DNA from: a virus
Lineage: Duplodnaviria > Heunggongvirae > Uroviricota > Caudoviricetes
Virus record (IMG/VR): IMGVR_UViG_2851982317_000004
DNA: 43,699 nucleotides
Strand: one strand, 5' to 3'
Positions 1,367 through 42,653 of this stretch are shown piece after piece. Position 1 is the stretch's first letter. The number at the start of each line of letters is the position of its first letter. The notes beneath the pieces were generated by a model, which saw only the letters and a program-made list of their open reading frames with translations, was not told the origin of the DNA and did not search any database. Both the position numbers and the translations under genes were made by a program.

Positions 1367-1418
1367 TCCGGAACGCGCCAGTTGCAGAATACCAACGACA
1401 ACTGGCGACGGTTGAACA

Positions 1419-3890
1419 TTAAAAATCAGCCTGATTCGGAATCAGTTTTTGCCAGATAGCTGAAACGTATTTTGCCTGGTAACGGGCGTCATCAAGTGCA
1501 TTATGGCGCTCACCTTCGAATGGAATAGCCGTTCTGGCATCGAAGTCTATGGCTTTCCCCAGCTCAACGATTGTGCGTACATCGCGATCGTTGTAGTAAC
1601 GCCACGGGCAGGGGATCCCCTGCCGTTCGTATGAACGGCGCAAAATCGTGTTGTCGAAGTTGGCTCCATTTCCCCAGACCTGAACAAAAAATTCACCGGA
1701 GTTTTCGTCGATAAATTCCCGCAATTGTAACAGTGCATCATCTAACGGGATTTCATCGGTCATAATGGCAGATTGCGCTTCGCGTGATTGCTTAAGCCAC
1801 CATTTAATGGTGTCCCGATCAATGACTCCGCCAGCAGTTTCCAGATCGATAGTCTTACTAAATTCCGGTCCCATATCTCCGGTTTGCGGATCGAAAAATA
1901 TTGCACCTATTGAGATAATCGGGGCATCAGGATTTTTTCCCATGGTTTCAAGGTCGATCATTAGATGGTCACACGTCCTACTGGCGGATGTGATTTCGTG
2001 ATGACCGTTCACCTTAATTGAGTGATCTGCCGTCTCGCCAGTTTCATTATCGCTATTGTGATGCTGATTGCCGCCAGTGTTCTTCTTGTTTGGATGTTCA
2101 GCGCCTTCCATTTCCTCCGGATCATCTTCCTGAACTTCAACCTGATACTCTTCATCGAATGTTTCCTGGTATGTTGCGTCGCCCATCACCGCGCCACAAT
2201 CAGGGCAGTTGCCGCCGCCGGTCTGACCGCAGGCGGTGCAGATCTTTTCCGGTTCCTGTTGCACTACTGGTTCAGGTTGTTTCGTTTCTTGCTCGTTTTG
2301 TAACGCATTTGGGCTGTTTTGTTCCGCTTTCTGGCCGTTCTGTTCCGTTTCTTGCTGGTTCTGGTTCACAGAATCGCGGGTTTCCATCCCCTTCACCCAT
2401 TTCGGATCATTCGGATCGCTAATTCCTACAACAAATTCACCACGTGATACTGCAAGCAGTTCATCGGCGTCAGGCTGGCTGATATTGGCTGCCTGCATAA
2501 TGTTGTTTACTTCGTCAGCGGTAACTTTTACCGGCCCTGGTTGTGCGGTCGTGTCAGATGCACCAGTATTTTGTTGTGAACCTGAGTATGTACTGTTTTT
2601 GCGGACGAAATATTCTTCTTTCGTGATTTCAGTAGCCCCGGCAGCCAGTGCCTTATCCAGACCAGAAAGTTTGTTTGCGCGACCGTATTTTTCACCATCC
2701 TTGTCGGTGAAGAGGAAGTAGAACGGCCCCTCACGCTCTACAGATGGTTCGACTTCCACTTTGCATTCGGTTTTTTCGTTGTCCGGAATTGCCGTTTCCA
2801 CTGCATCAGTTTCTGGTACTGGCGACGAGAGAGTATCAGTTGCGATCTGATTTGTTCCTTCATCTTCAAACACGCCCTTTGTAGTCAGGTATTCAGTAAT
2901 GTATTTGTTCAGTGCCACAGGGTCTTTGTGAATGTCGATCGGACGCTCACGGACAAGGCCAAAAATAGTCTGGCGGTCGTAGCGAAGGGCATCAGGCTGT
3001 TTGCGCATTGATGCTGAGATACGCTTCCAGTCTTCGCGGTCGTTGTTGATAACTTCATTTTTTGCCCAGCGATGGATGCTGCCGTCAATGTTTCCGGCAT
3101 CAATGTCACCAGGCCACAGAGCGTAGGCCAGTTCATCATCCAGTGTTTTCCATGTCTGCTTATATTCGCGACGAATGACTGCAGTGACAGGGGGGATATT
3201 TTCTGCTGAGTTTTCAGTGTGCTGTCGGTTGACTCTGGCGCGGGCGAGATCAACAGCAGACGTGTATTTTCCGGTTTCCTTGCGTTCACCTTCGCGACGT
3301 TTTTTCCAGATGCGCATCTCTGCCTGAATTTCGGGCCATTTAGCTCCAGGCTTACATTTATGCTTAACCCACCCGATGGCATGCAACTTAAGTTCTGGAT
3401 ACATGGCGTTAACTTCTGGCATTTTCATCAACGCTTCAACGATATGTCCGTCGAATGTTGCCATGTCTTCCTGCAACAGTTCCTGTGCACTAATCACCAT
3501 ATCAACGGTGATGTTTTCACATGTGTCGAACTTAACCATGACAGCGTTCTGTACTTCAGGGGCCAGCTTGTCAAAAGTGACGTTCATCGGATCTGATTCA
3601 GTCTCAACCGGGACAAAGGAAGCTGACTCCTCATCCCAGCGGTTTTCCTGCATATATTCAGCATCCCAGGAATCGAGGGCAGGGCGGGGTATACCGGGTT
3701 TATCCTCGCAAACAAGAAATTTATAAGCGCAGTCCTGAGCAGCCGGATATTGCTCCAGGAATTGCCAGGTAAATTTGGCACGGGCGCGGCGTTCGTCGCC
3801 AGCTTCAATGGCAGTGGCTACAGCGACTGCACCTTCTTCCTTTATTGCCTGTTCGTCCGGAATAGCGGCGCAAATAAAGACTTTACTCAT
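1419..3890 (-). CDS. Large exonuclease: RecE-like central region plus C-terminal DEDDh 3'-5' exonuclease domain
   Basis: 823 aa. C-terminal ~180 aa carry DnaQ-like motifs (MIDLETMG, WGNGANFD, HNALDDARY). The segment LLAVSRGEFVVGISDPNDPKWVKG resembles, from memory, a conserved stretch of Rac RecE. Sits directly upstream of xis/int. Confidence 0.75.
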   Translation of the reverse strand: MSKVFICAAIPDEQAIKEEGAVAVATAIEAGDERRARAKFTWQFLEQYPAAQDCAYKFLVCEDKPGIPRPALDSWDAEYMQENRWDEESASFVPVETESDPMNVTFDKLAPEVQNAVMVKFDTCENITVDMVISAQELLQEDMATFDGHIVEALMKMPEVNAMYPELKLHAIGWVKHKCKPGAKWPEIQAEMRIWKKRREGERKETGKYTSAVDLARARVNRQHTENSAENIPPVTAVIRREYKQTWKTLDDELAYALWPGDIDAGNIDGSIHRWAKNEVINNDREDWKRISASMRKQPDALRYDRQTIFGLVRERPIDIHKDPVALNKYITEYLTTKGVFEDEGTNQIATDTLSSPVPETDAVETAIPDNEKTECKVEVEPSVEREGPFYFLFTDKDGEKYGRANKLSGLDKALAAGATEITKEEYFVRKNSTYSGSQQNTGASDTTAQPGPVKVTADEVNNIMQAANISQPDADELLAVSRGEFVVGISDPNDPKWVKGMETRDSVNQNQQETEQNGQKAEQNSPNALQNEQETKQPEPVVQQEPEKICTACGQTGGGNCPDCGAVMGDATYQETFDEEYQVEVQEDDPEEMEGAEHPNKKNTGGNQHHNSDNETGETADHSIKVNGHHEITSASRTCDHLMIDLETMGKNPDAPIISIGAIFFDPQTGDMGPEFSKTIDLETAGGVIDRDTIKWWLKQSREAQSAIMTDEIPLDDALLQLREFIDENSGEFFVQVWGNGANFDNTILRRSYERQGIPCPWRYYNDRDVRTIVELGKAIDFDARTAIPFEGERHNALDDARYQAKYVSAIWQKLIPNQADF

Positions 3891-3969
3891 GTTGTTTTAA
3901 CCTCATTACAGATTTAAGGGTGAACAAATCCCTGCCATTGCTGGCATATAAAATGAAACCGGATATTAA

Positions 3970-4227
3970 TTACGGCGCTGTTTTAAGTCCTGCCGGGATT
4001 TCGTTATTATCCATGTGAATAACTTTATCGACCGGATAGCAGTTACCGGGAATTTTTTGTTCTGCTGCGGCAGCTATGCATTCTTTCATTGAACCGTAAA
4101 TGTTAATAACCATGTCAACAGGCTCGCCAGTATTAAGAAAAACAGTCAGAGTGAGGGCAATAGCAGTATTCATTGCCAGTATCCTTTTTGCATCGGGCGT
4201 AAACGGGCCAGCATTGAAAGAATGCAT
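3970..4227 (-). CDS. Small hypothetical protein with hydrophobic N-terminal segment
   Basis: ORF in the leftward early operon. An internal ATG near 4173 forms an ATGA overlap with the stop of the upstream ORF, suggesting the real product is ~67 aa (MNTAIALTLTVF...). Confidence 0.4.
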   Translation of the reverse strand: MHSFNAGPFTPDAKRILAMNTAIALTLTVFLNTGEPVDMVINIYGSMKECIAAAAEQKIPGNCYPVDKVIHMDNNEIPAGLKTAP

Positions 4228-4454
4228 ATTTTATTTAATAGCTCCCGTTCGTATTTTCTCTTATTAATGGCATCTTCAGTAAATACAGGGTTACTGATTC
4301 TGACACCAATTTCAAAACAACCTTCAGACGTATTGACGTTTGGTAATAACGTTTCCATTATCGCGTCCTCAACAATGAATTTTGTGATGCGGCGCCTGGT
4401 GCCTCCAGGTGACGTTAACCAGTTAACAATTAACGCCGGATACAGAGAACCCAC
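4170..4454 (-). CDS. Hypothetical early protein
   Basis: Track ORF starts with GTG; an internal ATG near 4358 has a GAGGA Shine-Dalgarno 6-7 nt upstream (METLLPNV..., ~62 aa). AT-rich. Confidence 0.35.
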   Translation of the reverse strand: MGSLYPALIVNWLTSPGGTRRRITKFIVEDAIMETLLPNVNTSEGCFEIGVRISNPVFTEDAINKRKYERELLNKICILSMLARLRPMQKGYWQ

Positions 4455-4540
4455 CCATAAGAACCAATACGGAAGTCAACTGGCCTTTTTAACTGTTCCG
4501 CGTGCGCTGAGCCGCATTCACCGCATCACAAAATTCACTT

Positions 4541-4587
4541 TAAAAAGGGCGGGTATCACAAGGGAAAACAAAAAACGGATACCCGCC
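4541..4587 (-). terminator. Candidate intrinsic terminator for leftward transcription
   Basis: Perfect 10-bp inverted repeat GGCGGGTATC / GATACCCGCC (about 4548-4557 and 4578-4587) followed on the minus strand by CTTTTTA; the loop is long (20 nt), which lowers confidence. Confidence 0.4.
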
Positions 4588-4927
4588 AAAAGGTAATCAG
4601 CATGGGTTGTTGCAGCGGAGTTGTCACTTAAGCGTATGGTCAACCTGACAACCCGGTGCTCCACAGGGGAGGGAGAATAGTACCCCTGCCATACTTACCG
4701 CCGCGCCATTTCGCGGATTGCCACAACCGGAAGCGTACGGTCGAATTAAATTTAACGACAAGCCTCATAGGTGAAGGCCTTCGCCGTACGCTTTCGTGTT
4801 ATGCCCTGACTTTTCAGGGATATATCCTTTCAGTAAACTGTCAGTGCCGGATGCTCACCCGTGTCCGGCGCACGCACTCCACCTCACCCGTGGAGAACTC
4901 CTTAATTACCAACCCTCAGGAGGGTGA

Positions 4928-5161
4928 ATGTTAAAATCAACTCTTATTGCTAAATGCCTTTATCAAAATCGCATGGTAAGCAGCATTTCAATAGGCGAGT
5001 CTGCAGTTAAAAGTATTTTCGAAGAGTACTTTTCCGGGCATGATTTTAATAAATGGAATACTAAATTACCGCCAGCAGTTTCAACGCGTATTCTGAAAGC
5101 AACTGAAAGAGCAAGTACAATTCGCGTTAACTATTTCATTAAAGATTTGTGGGATCTTTGA
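4928..5161 (+). CDS. Hypothetical 77 aa protein, rightward, opposite to the early-left operon
   Basis: ORF preceded by AGGAGG 5 nt upstream of the ATG; AT-rich coding sequence; 3' end overlaps the convergent 135 aa ORF by about 23 nt. Confidence 0.5.
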   Translation: MLKSTLIAKCLYQNRMVSSISIGESAVKSIFEEYFSGHDFNKWNTKLPPAVSTRILKATERASTIRVNYFIKDLWDL

Positions 5162-5546
5162 TATCCACAGAGCCTAAAGTATGTGCATATGGATGTGCTA
5201 TTGTGCGCCCCTGTAAATTTGCATCGTTTTCTAAATCTTTTGATTTCAACAGAACATCAGCAAGACTCTGAATCATGCAGAGATAATCAAAAGCAGTTGC
5301 CGTTTCTGTTCTGATTGCTGAAATAACATGACCATTCAGGCAAACAGAAATTACCCGTTCATCAATATCGTTTTCCTGTTTTTGATTATCAGAACCATAT
5401 AGCCCTGAAAAAGCATTGCGCACATTACGAACCATATTATCGATGGTTTCTTTTTTGGTGTATGCCGGGTCAATTTTCACCAGACTATCACCGAGTGTCG
5501 TTGCAGCAATTATCTGGATTTCTTTTGGTAAATCTTTAAATTCCAT
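5139..5546 (-). CDS. Hypothetical 135 aa protein
   Basis: ORF with GAGG 7 nt upstream of the ATG; begins right after the stop of the upstream ORF (5569); AT-rich; contains RTIAHPYAH, which only loosely resembles a HEPN-type R-x-H motif. Confidence 0.55.
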   Translation of the reverse strand: MEFKDLPKEIQIIAATTLGDSLVKIDPAYTKKETIDNMVRNVRNAFSGLYGSDNQKQENDIDERVISVCLNGHVISAIRTETATAFDYLCMIQSLADVLLKSKDLENDANLQGRTIAHPYAHTLGSVDIKDPTNL

Positions 5547-5568
5547 TATTAGCCTCGTTGGTTAGCCA

Positions 5569-5787
5569 TTAACGTGGGTATGTAATCATTCTGGCAATGC
5601 TTAATGCCGCTGCTTTTTCCAGATTGGTGATATCCTGCTCCAGAGCGGACAGATTTTCAGCTTGCTTAGCCCTGGCTTCATTGGCCCATTTCAGGTCCTG
5701 CGCAGCCTTAATTTTCTGGTGCATCCACTCATAAAGTTCATCATCGGTATAGTCTGGCGCGATGATGACGGGTTCTCGTTTCTGCAT
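5569..5787 (-). CDS. Hypothetical 72 aa early protein
   Basis: ORF in the leftward operon between the repressor region and the exonuclease; helical, charged composition. Confidence 0.5.
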   Translation of the reverse strand: MQKREPVIIAPDYTDDELYEWMHQKIKAAQDLKWANEARAKQAENLSALEQDITNLEKAAALSIARMITYPR

Positions 5788-5817
5788 ACTGATTCCTCGC
5801 GGTGCTGCTTCGCTTAT

Positions 5818-5945
5818 CAGCCGTTAGATTTTGCCGAGCTGGAAAGCGCCTGTATAAACTCACTGAAGCTGAGAGCTTCTTCGCCTTTGGCAAGGCCTTC
5901 GAAGTATTCTTCGTAAGCCTTTTCCATGATTGTGTCGAAATCCAT
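5818..5945 (-). CDS. Small hypothetical protein, ~42 aa (below track cutoff)
   Basis: Hand-translated minus-strand ORF MDFDTIMEKAYEEYFEGLAKGEEALSFSEFIQALSSSAKSNG; its ATG sits 2 nt after the stop of the upstream ORF (5947). Confidence 0.35.
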
Positions 5946-5946
5946 A

Positions 5947-6183
5947 TCACTCACCTGAGTTTCTTTCCAGCCAGCGACGGGCACCATTTTCGGTTTTAAA
6001 CGTTTTGCTTTTGGTATACGTCATCGCGGTGAACGTACCGTCCTGGTTGGGGAACACGCCACATACCAGAGATTCGTTGTTGCCAAGATCGATAGTATCC
6101 ATGTTGACCTCATTTCCCCTTAACGCCGGGGTAGCGGAACAAAAACCTGCTGCATAGTTATTAAAGTTGAACCCTGCCGTCAT
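5947..6183 (-). CDS. Hypothetical 78 aa protein, first gene of the leftward early operon
   Basis: ORF immediately downstream (leftward) of the candidate PL; not Arg-rich, so not an N-like antiterminator. Confidence 0.5.
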   Translation of the reverse strand: MTAGFNFNNYAAGFCSATPALRGNEVNMDTIDLGNNESLVCGVFPNQDGTFTAMTYTKSKTFKTENGARRWLERNSGE

Positions 6184-6283
6184 GTTCTTACGCCTCGGGC
6201 TGGCTACTTAACCCCTGACCACTGCCTAGTAACTCGAAGTATTGCCCTGCGTTCTGTGGGGCGGGGTGGGTTGATATGCAATA

Positions 6284-6312
6284 AATCTAAAAGTATTTAG
6301 TTTTATAGTCAA
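6284..6312 (-). promoter_or_regulatory. Candidate leftward early promoter (PL-like) overlapping operator repeats
   Basis: Minus strand reads TTGACT, 17 nt, TAGATT; AATCTAAA-type repeats overlap (about 6285 and 6318). Confidence 0.4.
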
Positions 6313-6332
6313 GTAAAAATCTAAATTAATTT

Positions 6333-6357
6333 AAAAAAAGGTCGGCATAACCGACCT
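6333..6357 (-). terminator. Intrinsic terminator downstream of the repressor gene
   Basis: 7-bp stem AGGTCGG / CCGACCT with 5-nt loop, followed on the minus strand by a T6 run. Confidence 0.5.
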
Positions 6358-6379
6358 TAAGTTCAAGAACATGGCAGGG

Positions 6380-7027
6380 TTATAGGTTGAACTGTACACC
6401 CTTTGCTACGGCAACAATTTTACACTCTGGCGTAAGCAAGGATGATTGATAGCGCGGATTGAGAGGGCTTAAATACACAAGTTTTCCATCAATAACTAAT
6501 TTTTTTATAGTCATAGACGGTTCATTTGTAAGAGGATCTGGAACTATTACAGCGACGATACTGCCATTTTTATAACTTTCTCCTGGTCTTAGGATCACAG
6601 TGGCACCAACTGGGATACTTGGCGACCCTGAGGGGTTATGCATAGTGTCATCAGGCATTGAAACGGCAAAATCACCTTCCACTACATCAAAGAATGTGGT
6701 GATCCTATCGACATTTCCCATTGTTTTCTCTCCTTCTAAGATTAGGAAAGAAATCGCGTCACCCCACGAAAAGTAGGGGATCTTGGTGCCTGGATTGCTC
6801 TGCACAAAAGATAGTTCAGGAGACGATACTCCATACAGGAGATAGGACTCAGTAGTTCCTAATGCTTGGGCTAACTTACTTAGAGCTTTGCTGCCGGGTT
6901 CGTTTAGATCTTTCTCCCAGTACCCTATAGTAACCCCAGTCACGCCTGAAAGCTTACCCAGTTCTACTTGGGTGAGTCCCTTATCTTTTCTGAGTTTCTT
7001 AAGCCTGATGCCAAGGCTTTCCATCAT
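6380..7027 (-). CDS. Phage repressor, cI/LexA-like (HTH plus S24 peptidase-like C-terminal domain)
   Basis: 215 aa; N-terminal HTH-like LTQVELGKLSGVTGVTIGYWEK; C-terminal half has the length and Ser...Lys spacing of an autocleaving S24 domain; divergent from the Cro-like gene with operator repeats on both sides. Confidence 0.85.
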   Translation of the reverse strand: MMESLGIRLKKLRKDKGLTQVELGKLSGVTGVTIGYWEKDLNEPGSKALSKLAQALGTTESYLLYGVSSPELSFVQSNPGTKIPYFSWGDAISFLILEGEKTMGNVDRITTFFDVVEGDFAVSMPDDTMHNPSGSPSIPVGATVILRPGESYKNGSIVAVIVPDPLTNEPSMTIKKLVIDGKLVYLSPLNPRYQSSLLTPECKIVAVAKGVQFNL

Positions 7028-11595: not shown

Positions 11596-11854
11596 ATACA
11601 GCGAACGCTATTGGTTTAGTTGGATATTTACTGTGCCGGACAAAAACGGTTTGCAGGGAAATCTTAGTTAAGTAGAATGACTGTGGGTGCTTGAGGCTAT
11701 CTGTCTCAGGCATGAACACCAAAAGGCAGATAGAGAAAAGCCCCAGTTAACATTACGCGTCCTGCAAGACGCTTAACATTAATCTGAGGCTCAATCCATG
11801 CTGAACACATGTAGGTTAGCCTCTTACGTGCCGAAAGGCAAGGAGAAGCAGGCT

Positions 11855-12010
11855 ATGAAGCAGCAAAAGGCGATGTTAATCGCCCTTATCGTCATCTGTT
11901 TAACCGTCATAGTGACGGCACTGGTAACGAGGAAAGACCTCTGCGAGGTACGAATCCGAACCGGCCAGACGGAGGTCGCTGTCTTCACAGCTTACGAACC
12001 TGAGGAGTAA
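11855..12010 (+). CDS. hok: Hok/Gef-family type I toxin (51 aa)
   Basis: MKQQKAMLIALIVICLTVIVTALVTRKDLCEVRIRTGQTEVAVFTAYEPEE has the Hok/Gef signature (single TM segment, conserved Cys, C-terminal AYE) and matches my recollection of E. coli HokD/RelF; long structured leader upstream and an intrinsic terminator just downstream. Confidence 0.85.
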   Translation: MKQQKAMLIALIVICLTVIVTALVTRKDLCEVRIRTGQTEVAVFTAYEPEE

Positions 12011-16192: not shown

Positions 16193-16268
16193 GGCCCTTT
16201 AGCTCAGTGGTGAGAGCGAGCGACTCATAATCGCCAGGTCGCTGGTTCAAATCCAGCAAGGGCCACCA
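16193..16268 (+). tRNA. ileZ: tRNA with anticodon CAU, probably tRNA-Ile2 (lysidine type; ileX/ileZ-like), Met not excluded
   Basis: Hand-folded cloverleaf: acceptor GGCCCTT/AAGGGCC, D-arm GCTC/GAGC, anticodon loop CTCATAA, T-arm GCTGG-TTCAAAT-CCAGC, encoded CCA; close to E. coli ileX as I recall it. Confidence 0.85.
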
Positions 16269-16275
16269 TCACATA

Positions 16276-16352
16276 CCGCCATTAGCTCATCGGCAGAGAG
16301 CGTCAGCTTTCGAAACTGGCTGTGTGGGGCTCGGGTCCCCGATGGCAATCCA
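16276..16352 (+). tRNA. tRNA-like gene, non-canonical; possible tRNA-Arg (anticodon UCG, argN-like)
   Basis: Hand fold gives a D-arm GCTC/GAGC, anticodon loop TTTCGAA and encoded CCA, but positions 1-2 are unpaired C-A, the anticodon stem has a mismatch and the T-loop is CTCGGGT instead of TTCRANY. Confidence 0.4.
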
Positions 16353-16365
16353 TTATCTGCATTAT

Positions 16366-16442
16366 GCGTTGTTAGCTCAGCCGGACAGAGCAATTGCCTT
16401 CTAAGCAATCGGTCACTGGTTCGAATCCAGTACAACGCGCCA
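16366..16442 (+). tRNA. argO: tRNA-Arg (anticodon UCU, argU/argO-like)
   Basis: Hand-folded cloverleaf: acceptor GCGTTGT/ACAACGC, anticodon arm ATTGC-CTTCTAA-GCAAT, T-arm ACTGG-TTCGAAT-CCAGT, encoded CCA. Confidence 0.85.
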
Positions 16443-42069: not shown

Positions 42070-42653
42070 TGGCATTCAGAATGAGTGAACAAGCACGGAC
42101 CATAAAAATTTATAATCTGCTGGCCGGAACTAATGAATTTATTGGTGAAGGTGACGCATATATTCCGCCTCATACAGGTCTGCCAGCAAACAGTACCGAT
42201 ATTGCACCACCAGATATTCCTGCTGGCTTTGTGGCTGTTTTCAACAGTGATGAGGCATCGTGGCATCTCGTTGAAGACCATCGGGGTAAAACGGTTTATG
42301 ACGTAGCGTCAGGGGACGAGTTATTTATTTCTGAACTCGGTCCGTTACCGGAAAATGTTACCTGGTTATCGCCGGAAGGGGAGTTTCAGAAGTGGAACGG
42401 CACAGCCTGGGTGAAGGATACGGAAGCAGAAAAACTGTTCCGGATCCGGGAGGCGGAAGAAACAAAAAACAACCTGATGCAGGTAGCCAGTGAGCATATT
42501 GCGCCGCTTCAGGATGCTGCAGATCTGGAAATTGCAACGGAGGAAGAAACCTCATTGCTGGAAGCCTGGAAAAAGTATCGGGTGTTGCTGAACCGTGTTG
42601 ATACATCAACTGCACCTGATATTGAGTGGCCTACGAACCCTGTCAGGGAGTAA
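42069..42653 (+). CDS. tfa: Tail fibre assembly protein Tfa
   Basis: 194 aa; ATG overlaps the stf stop (TAATG); colinear with lambda Tfa as I recall it (MAFRMSEQ..., C-terminal IAPLQDA...IEWP). Confidence 0.85.
42492..42653 (+). repeat. Direct repeat copy 1 (tfa 3' end)
   Basis: About 160 bp highly similar to 43541..43699 (the reading frame is preserved in both copies). Confidence 0.7.

Follow-up and report, generated by a model that had tools for sequence, protein, structure and literature searches.

A palindrome-rich early-left segment of a lambdoid prophage as a probable dicF locus with a variant small RNA

The segment at positions 4455-4927 of IMG/VR record IMGVR_UViG_2851982317_000004, a stretch of 43,699 nucleotides that we refer to as the window, is very probably (roughly 85%) the untranslated ydfC–dicF–dicB intercistronic region of a Qin-like dicBF early-left operon, encoded on the minus strand. 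The locus is a known system carrying an undescribed version of its sRNA. Among prophage sRNAs, DicF is one of a small number that are known to influence the division and metabolism of the host and the virulence of EHEC. The new elements are a recurrent, unannotated variant of the DicF slot that fails the family model, a defined four-way-junction scaffold that is common to phage P1, and a set of modular tails. A preliminary description of this DNA had pointed to the density of inverted repeats in the segment and had judged that no nameable feature explained them; the dicF locus with its processed leader, known since 1990 from the Qin prophage of K-12, is such a feature. The structured non-coding RNA that the same description had listed among its options is borne out, in that the conserved repeats keep their pairing, and do so as minus-strand RNA.

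Operon context and the dicF slot

The minus strand of the window carries a lambdoid early-left operon at ~1400-7000. The annotation of a RefSeq genome that is 100% identical gives, in order of transcription, a cI-like repressor, a DUF1391 protein (YdfA-like), YdfB, and YdfC, followed by a hypothetical protein of 135 aa, another of 77 aa encoded on the opposite strand, and an unannotated gap, and then by DicB, a DUF1482 (YdfD-like) protein, and a large exonuclease. With the repressor, DUF1391/ydfB/ydfC, dicB, DUF1482, and exonuclease genes all annotated on the minus strand of this identical record, the early-left setting that had been proposed from the letters is right. By annotation and alignment together, the segment has ydfC on one side and dicB on the other and lies on the coding strand of an early-left operon under repressor control; strand and position are those of dicF in the cryptic prophage Qin, where the order is ydfA-ydfB-ydfC, 340 nt, dicF, 175 nt, dicB-ydfD-ydfE. 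The present copy differs from Qin in having 2 extra genes between ydfC and the leader, one of 135 aa (−) and one of 77 aa (+). DicF is annotated at the homologous place in phage Tritos, and sequences resembling the segment occur in 4,722 of 5,426 complete E. coli genomes. A search of genome contigs for DicB returned 7 loci, all from Escherichia/Shigella save one contig labelled as a Veillonella MAG, and added little diversity.

Aligning the window with K-12 and Tritos gives a mosaic of identities by part. The leader upstream of the slot is 84-93% identical to K-12 and the spacer downstream of it 86%, whereas the linker and terminator between these flanks are only 48% identical; from this pattern we conclude that the flanks have been conserved and the body of the sRNA replaced. 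The layout is the same as in K-12, a structured domain (here domain X) being followed by a linker and a terminator (Table 1), and the RNase III hairpin ahead of domain X is homologous as well. Canonical DicF, UUUCUGGUGACGUUUGGCGG..., is replaced here by ...CCCAUGCUGAUUACCUUUUGGCGGGUAUCC...; the linker stands where canonical DicF has its 5' part, with ~10 nt of the canonical 5' seed absent, and the loop differs. The 3' end of the slot is a Rho-independent terminator hairpin with a U-run, in the same alignment position as the DicF terminator of K-12. The hairpin had already been taken for a minus-strand terminator in the preliminary description, and its 10-bp stem (−18.5 kcal/mol, z −3.5) followed by C and UUUUU agrees with that assignment. 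The slot is preceded both by the ~137-nt 5' extension of the 190-nt precursor, which is domain X, and by the homologous RNase III hairpin; in K-12, domain X and DicF together make up this known 190-nt DicF precursor.

The Rfam model of DicF (RF00039, gathering threshold 48 bits) has no match in the present copy even at E ≤ 10, while the same model scores 76.7 bits on K-12 and 58.9 bits on a second kind of slot, type E. More broadly, a scan of the window with Rfam returned no family for the leader, for domain X, or for the variant sRNA, either at gathering thresholds or at E ≤ 10. We call the variant in the present copy type B. It recurs, with 89-100% identity and in every case unannotated, in 131 of the 5,426 complete E. 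coli genomes, and its type of linker and terminator is conserved in about 10 IMG/VR loci. The unpaired linker, U-rich stretch, hairpin, and U-tail are the form of an Hfq-type regulator, making it plausible that type B acts as a base-pairing sRNA of this kind with targets other than those of canonical DicF. Full-length RNAduplex predictions for ten tail types against the ftsZ start region gave z +0.24 relative to shuffled sequences for type B as compared with z −0.95 for genuine DicF, so that neither stood out from the shuffles by this crude measure, which ignores intramolecular structure; pairing of type B with ftsZ is not evident. Faubladier and Bouché reportedly treated dicF-related prophage sequences in 1994, and some of the dicF-slot variants may already have been described then.

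Downstream of the terminator lies the dicB leader. It bears a sub-threshold likeness, at 4381-4535 (−), to the Gammaproteobacterial sRNA STnc100 of Rfam (28.5 bits against a gathering threshold of 47, E 4e-4), a weak similarity that falls mostly outside the palindrome-rich part. A P1-like plasmid has the same STnc100-like module on the downstream side of its tRNA array (L091, 3635-3772). A sigma-70-like site, TTGACG-17-CATTAT, lies within the dicB start at 4333-4361 (+) and, if active, would drive an RNA antisense to the dicB leader, the sRNA, and domain X; such sites are no more frequent in the region than expected by chance (3 found versus 4.8 expected).

Table 1. Coordinates of the features of the segment and its surroundings, given as positions of the window
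Feature	Position	Strand	Evidence or remark
dicB, cell-division inhibitor, downstream of the terminator	4170-4358	−	identical RefSeq annotation; protein aligns with K-12 DicB loci
5' part of the dicF–dicB spacer (dicB leader, continuing to 4359)	4455-4541	−	spacer 86% identical to K-12
Rho-independent terminator of the DicF slot	4542-4587; stem 4578-4587/4548-4557, 20-nt U-rich loop, C + UUUUU 4542-4546	−	
Single-stranded U-rich linker AACCCAUGCUGAUUACCUUUU, 21 nt; candidate seed of the variant sRNA	4588-4608	−	predicted unpaired
Domain X, 119-nt four-way-junction RNA	4609-4727	−	fold and covariation
X closing helix P1	4720-4727 with 4609-4616	−	
X hairpin P2	4712-4716 with 4701-4705	−	
X arm P3	4697-4700 with 4654-4657	−	
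X variable hairpin P3a, borne on P3	4683-4688 with 4664-4669	−	
X hairpin P4	4647-4653 with 4619-4625	−	
X candidate pseudoknot, P3 internal loop to P4 loop	GUAUGG 4689-4694 with CCAUAC 4634-4639	−	
Long hairpin closed by the 10-bp repeat, variable interior	4728-4796; arms 4728-4740/4784-4796	−	arm pairing kept
Upstream half of the ydfC–dicF leader	4797-4915	−	93% identical to K-12 Qin
Candidate leader hairpins	CUCCAC/GUGGAG 4877-4895; GCCGGA/UCCGGC 4846-4869; CUGAC/GUCAG or CCCUGA/UCAGGG 4804-4844	−	
Junction ending leader conservation; AGGAGG ribosome-binding site of the 77-aa gene	4916-4927	+	K-12 alignment
Inverted repeat GGCGGGTATC/GATACCCGCC	4548-4557/4578-4587		repeat search
Inverted repeat CTCCAC/GTGGAG	4877-4882/4890-4895		repeat search
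Palindromes	4746-4755, 4770-4785, 4818-4827		repeat search
Inverted repeat CAGGGG/CCCCTG	4664-4669/4683-4688		repeat search; not in the preliminary description
Inverted repeat GTTGTCA/TGACAAC	4620-4626/4646-4652		repeat search; not in the preliminary description
Inverted repeat GTATGG/CCATAC	4634-4639/4689-4694		repeat search; not in the preliminary description
Inverted repeat GCCGGA/TCCGGC	4846-4851/4864-4869		repeat search; not in the preliminary description

Processing hairpin, domain X, and upstream leader

A repeat search of the window recovered every inverted repeat previously reported for the segment, together with 4 more (Table 1). The repeats are denser than expected by chance, and both strands of 4540-4930 fold better than dinucleotide-shuffled controls: the minus strand reaches −151.1 kcal/mol against −126.5 ± 5.3 for the shuffles (z −4.63, none of 100 shuffles as good), and the plus strand z −4.60, again with no shuffle as good. 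Neither ARAGORN nor the Rfam models place a tRNA or tmRNA in the segment, the only tRNAs of the window being three at 16193-16442, and a promoter scan found no promoter-like site on the minus strand inside it.

The 10-bp core that closes the long hairpin extends to arms of 13 nt with 92% complementarity and 43 nt between them. Of 58 homologues, 49 keep all 10 pairs of the core and the others keep 9. Two double changes have occurred independently, one position being U-A here and C-G in most sequences and another going from G-C to A-U in three; the resulting compensatory variants of the arms are GUACGG/CCGUAC and GCACAG/CUGUGC. The K-12 arms carry a G-U variant, which pairs only in the minus-strand RNA. 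The interior of the hairpin is far more variable (58% identical to K-12). The preliminary description had also listed three short perfect palindromes, and here conservation divides: the 10-bp repeat is kept with compensatory changes, and the palindromes are not. TTAAATTTAA is retained as a palindrome in 11 of 58 sequences, GAAGGCCTTC in 1 of 58, and GGATATATCC in 11 of 48; all three are incidental to the present copy.

The processing of DicF in K-12 has been described (Faubladier et al. 1990; Ragunathan et al. 2023). The 190-nt DicF species owes its 5' end to RNase III, the 53-nt form is produced by RNase E, and no internal promoter was found (Ragunathan et al. 2023). In K-12, the point 190 nt before the DicF 3' end falls at CCGUGCG|CUU, within the 3' arm of the homologous stem. 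The hairpin at 4728-4796 is therefore likely to be the stem at which RNase III cuts to generate the 5' end of a long DicF-type precursor, and we infer by analogy that the present copy is cut as the K-12 copy is. Natural variants without the processing stem exist: in three dicBF loci (L039, L090, and L147) the RNase III hairpin and the 5' strand of helix P1 of domain X have been deleted, apparently by recombination between two CGCGAAA repeats.

Domain X is predicted to be a four-way junction closed by helix P1. Its pairing holds in 97.1% of cells over 37 diverse sequences, against 28-54% in slid controls, and two-sided changes affect five of its pairs where shuffles give 1.7 (6 of 500), a covariation that is drawn from close relatives collected in part with a pattern fixing two of the motifs of the domain. 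Compensatory and G-U changes are seen in P1, P3a, P4, and the pseudoknot. Support for the likely pseudoknot comes from a single covarying position, which reads U-A in 34 sequences, U-G in 2, and C-G in 1. Domain X is 84% identical to K-12 overall and its hairpin P3a 48%; the latter occurs with 45 distinct inserts, at least 40 of which fold as one stem-loop. A covariance model of domain X built here finds one copy in the window (136 bits) and further copies in K-12, in an e14-like prophage, and in P1-type elements.

The 5' strand of helix P1 (GUUGUGGC, 4722-4727) has an alternative partner. Instead of pairing within 4609-4616 it can pair with CAUAAC at 4797-4802, immediately 5' of the RNase III stem, and would thereby make that stem longer. 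Folding of the single sequence favours the pairing of 4722-4727 with 4797-4802, whereas folding of the alignment favours P1, and the switch between them could be a refolding step that depends on processing.

Structure in the upstream half of the leader is plausible. Its candidate stems are 98% paired over 59 sequences, and no compensatory change was found among these sequences, the stems being almost invariant and thus leaving no room for covariation. Homologues of the leader end at varying 5' points (q24, 42, 53, 97, and 102). In the present copy the conservation ends at a junction, 4916-4930, with the sequence CCTCAGGAGGGTGA-ATG, where the 77-aa gene begins on the plus strand (4928-5161; its product hits phrog_10348, E 2.7e-46). 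Other prophages have the same junction ahead of plus-strand cargo genes that are unrelated (P0011, ...PQEGE-MASKNVNIQF; P0021, ...PQDGE-MSTENDEIINS), an arrangement suggestive of a hot spot at which convergently oriented cargo genes (morons) insert. These cargo genes have no evident promoter.

The mechanism best supported by these data is that of a processed, structured leader delivering an sRNA of the DicF family, whose 5' end would be made by RNase III and whose 3' end would be set by the terminator, with read-through into dicB. What the data show directly is that the locus is homologous to that of K-12 and shares its architecture, that pairing is conserved, and where the K-12 cut falls. Transcription would run right to left from a repressor-controlled promoter near 6300, and the polycistronic RNA would fold into the leader. 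RNase III would cut the long hairpin closed by the 10-bp repeat and thereby release an RNA of ~180-190 nt consisting of domain X, the short single-stranded linker, and the terminator hairpin. Transcription would either stop at the terminator, giving the 3' end of the sRNA, or read through into dicB, and RNase E may trim the product further to a short sRNA.

Alternative readings of the segment

The only long ORF of the segment is 4656-4934 on the plus strand, as had been reported, and the conservation of the leader could in principle reflect coding constraint if this ORF, or its C-terminal half, encoded a small protein, possibly coupled to the 77-aa gene whose ATG its stop codon overlaps. We consider this highly improbable. 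One antisense frame is nearly free of stops in all 37 full-length homologues, gene callers sometimes call the ORF, and over 4800-4915 this frame has the highest synonymous share of the plus-strand frames; the counts there are 9 synonymous to 14 non-synonymous changes, as compared with 26 to 27 for dicB, and the distribution over codon positions (7/5/11) is a bias that is not significant for 23 events. Against these points, tracking of the frame shows that the N-terminal two thirds of the ORF change frame between homologues, owing to indels in P3a and the hairpin interior that are not multiples of three. Scans against PHROG and Pfam assign it to no family, while the neighbouring genes have PHROG families, and RefSeq leaves it unannotated both in K-12 and in the identical genome. 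A search of 5.8 billion proteins returned 83 related protein clusters, all from Escherichia, Shigella, or Salmonella, which range from 51 to 157 aa and cover 23-73% of the query, some of them being start-codon extensions of unrelated downstream genes. As a conserved gene ORF 4656-4934 is accordingly rejected for its frame shifts, its lack of a family, and inconsistent gene calls confined to close relatives; its C-terminal half is weakly ambiguous, and here a residual doubt remains. The earlier view that the segment holds no convincing ORF stands, no convincing gene having been found in it, whereas the suggestion of a decayed gene does not fit, given that none of the homologues has a consistent intact gene at this place. 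The several perfect 10-bp palindromes within 100 bp, which had also prompted the idea of a cluster of protein-binding sites, might be DNA sites for a phage regulator such as the repressor or Cro, or part of a recombination or origin structure. To this we give almost no credence: most homologues have lost the three perfect palindromes as palindromes, and the repeats that are conserved hold their pairing through compensatory changes and tolerate G-U, a pair possible only in minus-strand RNA, in a segment 1.4 kb away from the repressor/cro control region.

The remaining alternative concerns what domain X is for. It could be a cis-acting RNA, either a put-like processive antiterminator or an attenuator, that controls the adjoining terminator and with it the access of polymerase to dicB and the rest of the operon, the sRNA then being a by-product. 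Several observations are in keeping with such a role. Domain X is better conserved than the sRNA part attached to it (84% versus 48% identity to K-12), and a strong intrinsic terminator follows it after 7-34 nt in three unrelated operon contexts, in one case 180 nt into the ban operon of P1. The identical record has no N-like gene annotated between the repressor and ydfA, and HK022 shows that lambdoid phages without N can use RNA antiterminators. The putL and putR sites of HK022 resemble domain X in being structured RNAs that lie in the early operons of N-less lambdoid phages upstream of terminators. The put element, however, is ~70 nt with two stem-loops and occurs as similar copies downstream of both pL and pR, so that both early operons of HK022 are served, whereas domain X is a 119-nt four-way junction present once in the window; the two match neither in sequence nor in structure, and a search of the HK022 immunity region with the covariance model of domain X gave no hit at E ≤ 10. 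Moreover, a 190-nt RNA ending at the terminator accumulates in K-12, meaning that termination does occur there, and no experimental result hints at antitermination by domain X. We therefore judge this control function with a by-product sRNA to be improbable, and retain the processed leader that delivers a DicF-family sRNA as the preferred reading.

A related proposal is that domain X is a functional RNA module in its own right, common to Qin-like and e14-like prophages and to P1-like phage-plasmids, which would act either as a cis-acting read-through element or as an sRNA scaffold. This is tentative, and as a whole we find it doubtful. As a cis element it could govern read-through of the adjoining terminator and so serve as an antitermination or attenuation device in N-less lambdoid phages and in the ban operon of P1. 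As a scaffold it could carry interchangeable cassettes of seed and terminator, giving rise to a family of early-lytic sRNAs with different host targets.

Distribution of domain X and its tails

A pattern scan of IMG/VR, together with loci fetched beforehand, yielded 197 instances of domain X with 72 distinct tails, 69 of which have a hairpin and T-run that start 7-34 nt after the domain. The tails fall into at least 8 types, including hybrids that join the linker of one type to the hairpin of another, and among these types the Rfam model of DicF recognises only the canonical one and one other. The dicF slot is thus a mosaic: its seed and terminator can be exchanged, and the elements for processing and scaffolding that border them are conserved. 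Most tail types escape the DicF model and carry no annotation in genomes. Should the variants be active, prophage regulators that act on other targets have gone unrecognised in many E. coli strains. The model of domain X is a reliable means of finding such loci during annotation.

Domain X also occurs apart from dicB. In an e14-like prophage it lies between the repressor and yfdP, and in phage P1 it lies directly behind the C1-controlled Pban promoter and upstream of tRNA genes, where the record notes a "dicF-like region"; the P1 form is present in 499 PLSDB plasmids. This region of P1 and P1-like phage-plasmids (downstream of Pban/Op72) has the same domain X (89.7-109 bits), followed as in the present copy by a short linker and a strong terminator, and both are under the control of a phage repressor. 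The P1 region differs in starting at a promoter rather than at an RNase III cut, in having a closing helix built from a different sequence, and in bearing a tail unrelated in sequence, and it continues into tRNA genes and ban instead of dicB.

Two further loci from IMG/VR have tails of particular form. In one contig (L124) the terminator loop, GUUUCUCUCC, is an exact complement of the ftsZ Shine-Dalgarno region, GGAGAGAAAC, and matches ftsZ better than canonical DicF does, yet the Rfam DicF model misses this locus. In a prophage (L178, 747-1359), isrK (RF01394) and a C4 antisense RNA (RF01695) come ~300 nt after a domain X that has a tail type of its own, so that three phage regulatory RNAs are clustered there.

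Other RNA features lie elsewhere in the window on the plus strand. A match to the sok antitoxin RNA of Rfam at 11685-11860 (118.9 bits) implies a hok/sok-type toxin-antitoxin module in the prophage, the three tRNA genes at 16193-16442 are Met-CAT, Arg-TCG, and Arg-TCT, and a full-length match to Rfam IS009 is found at 42412-42610 (225 bits).
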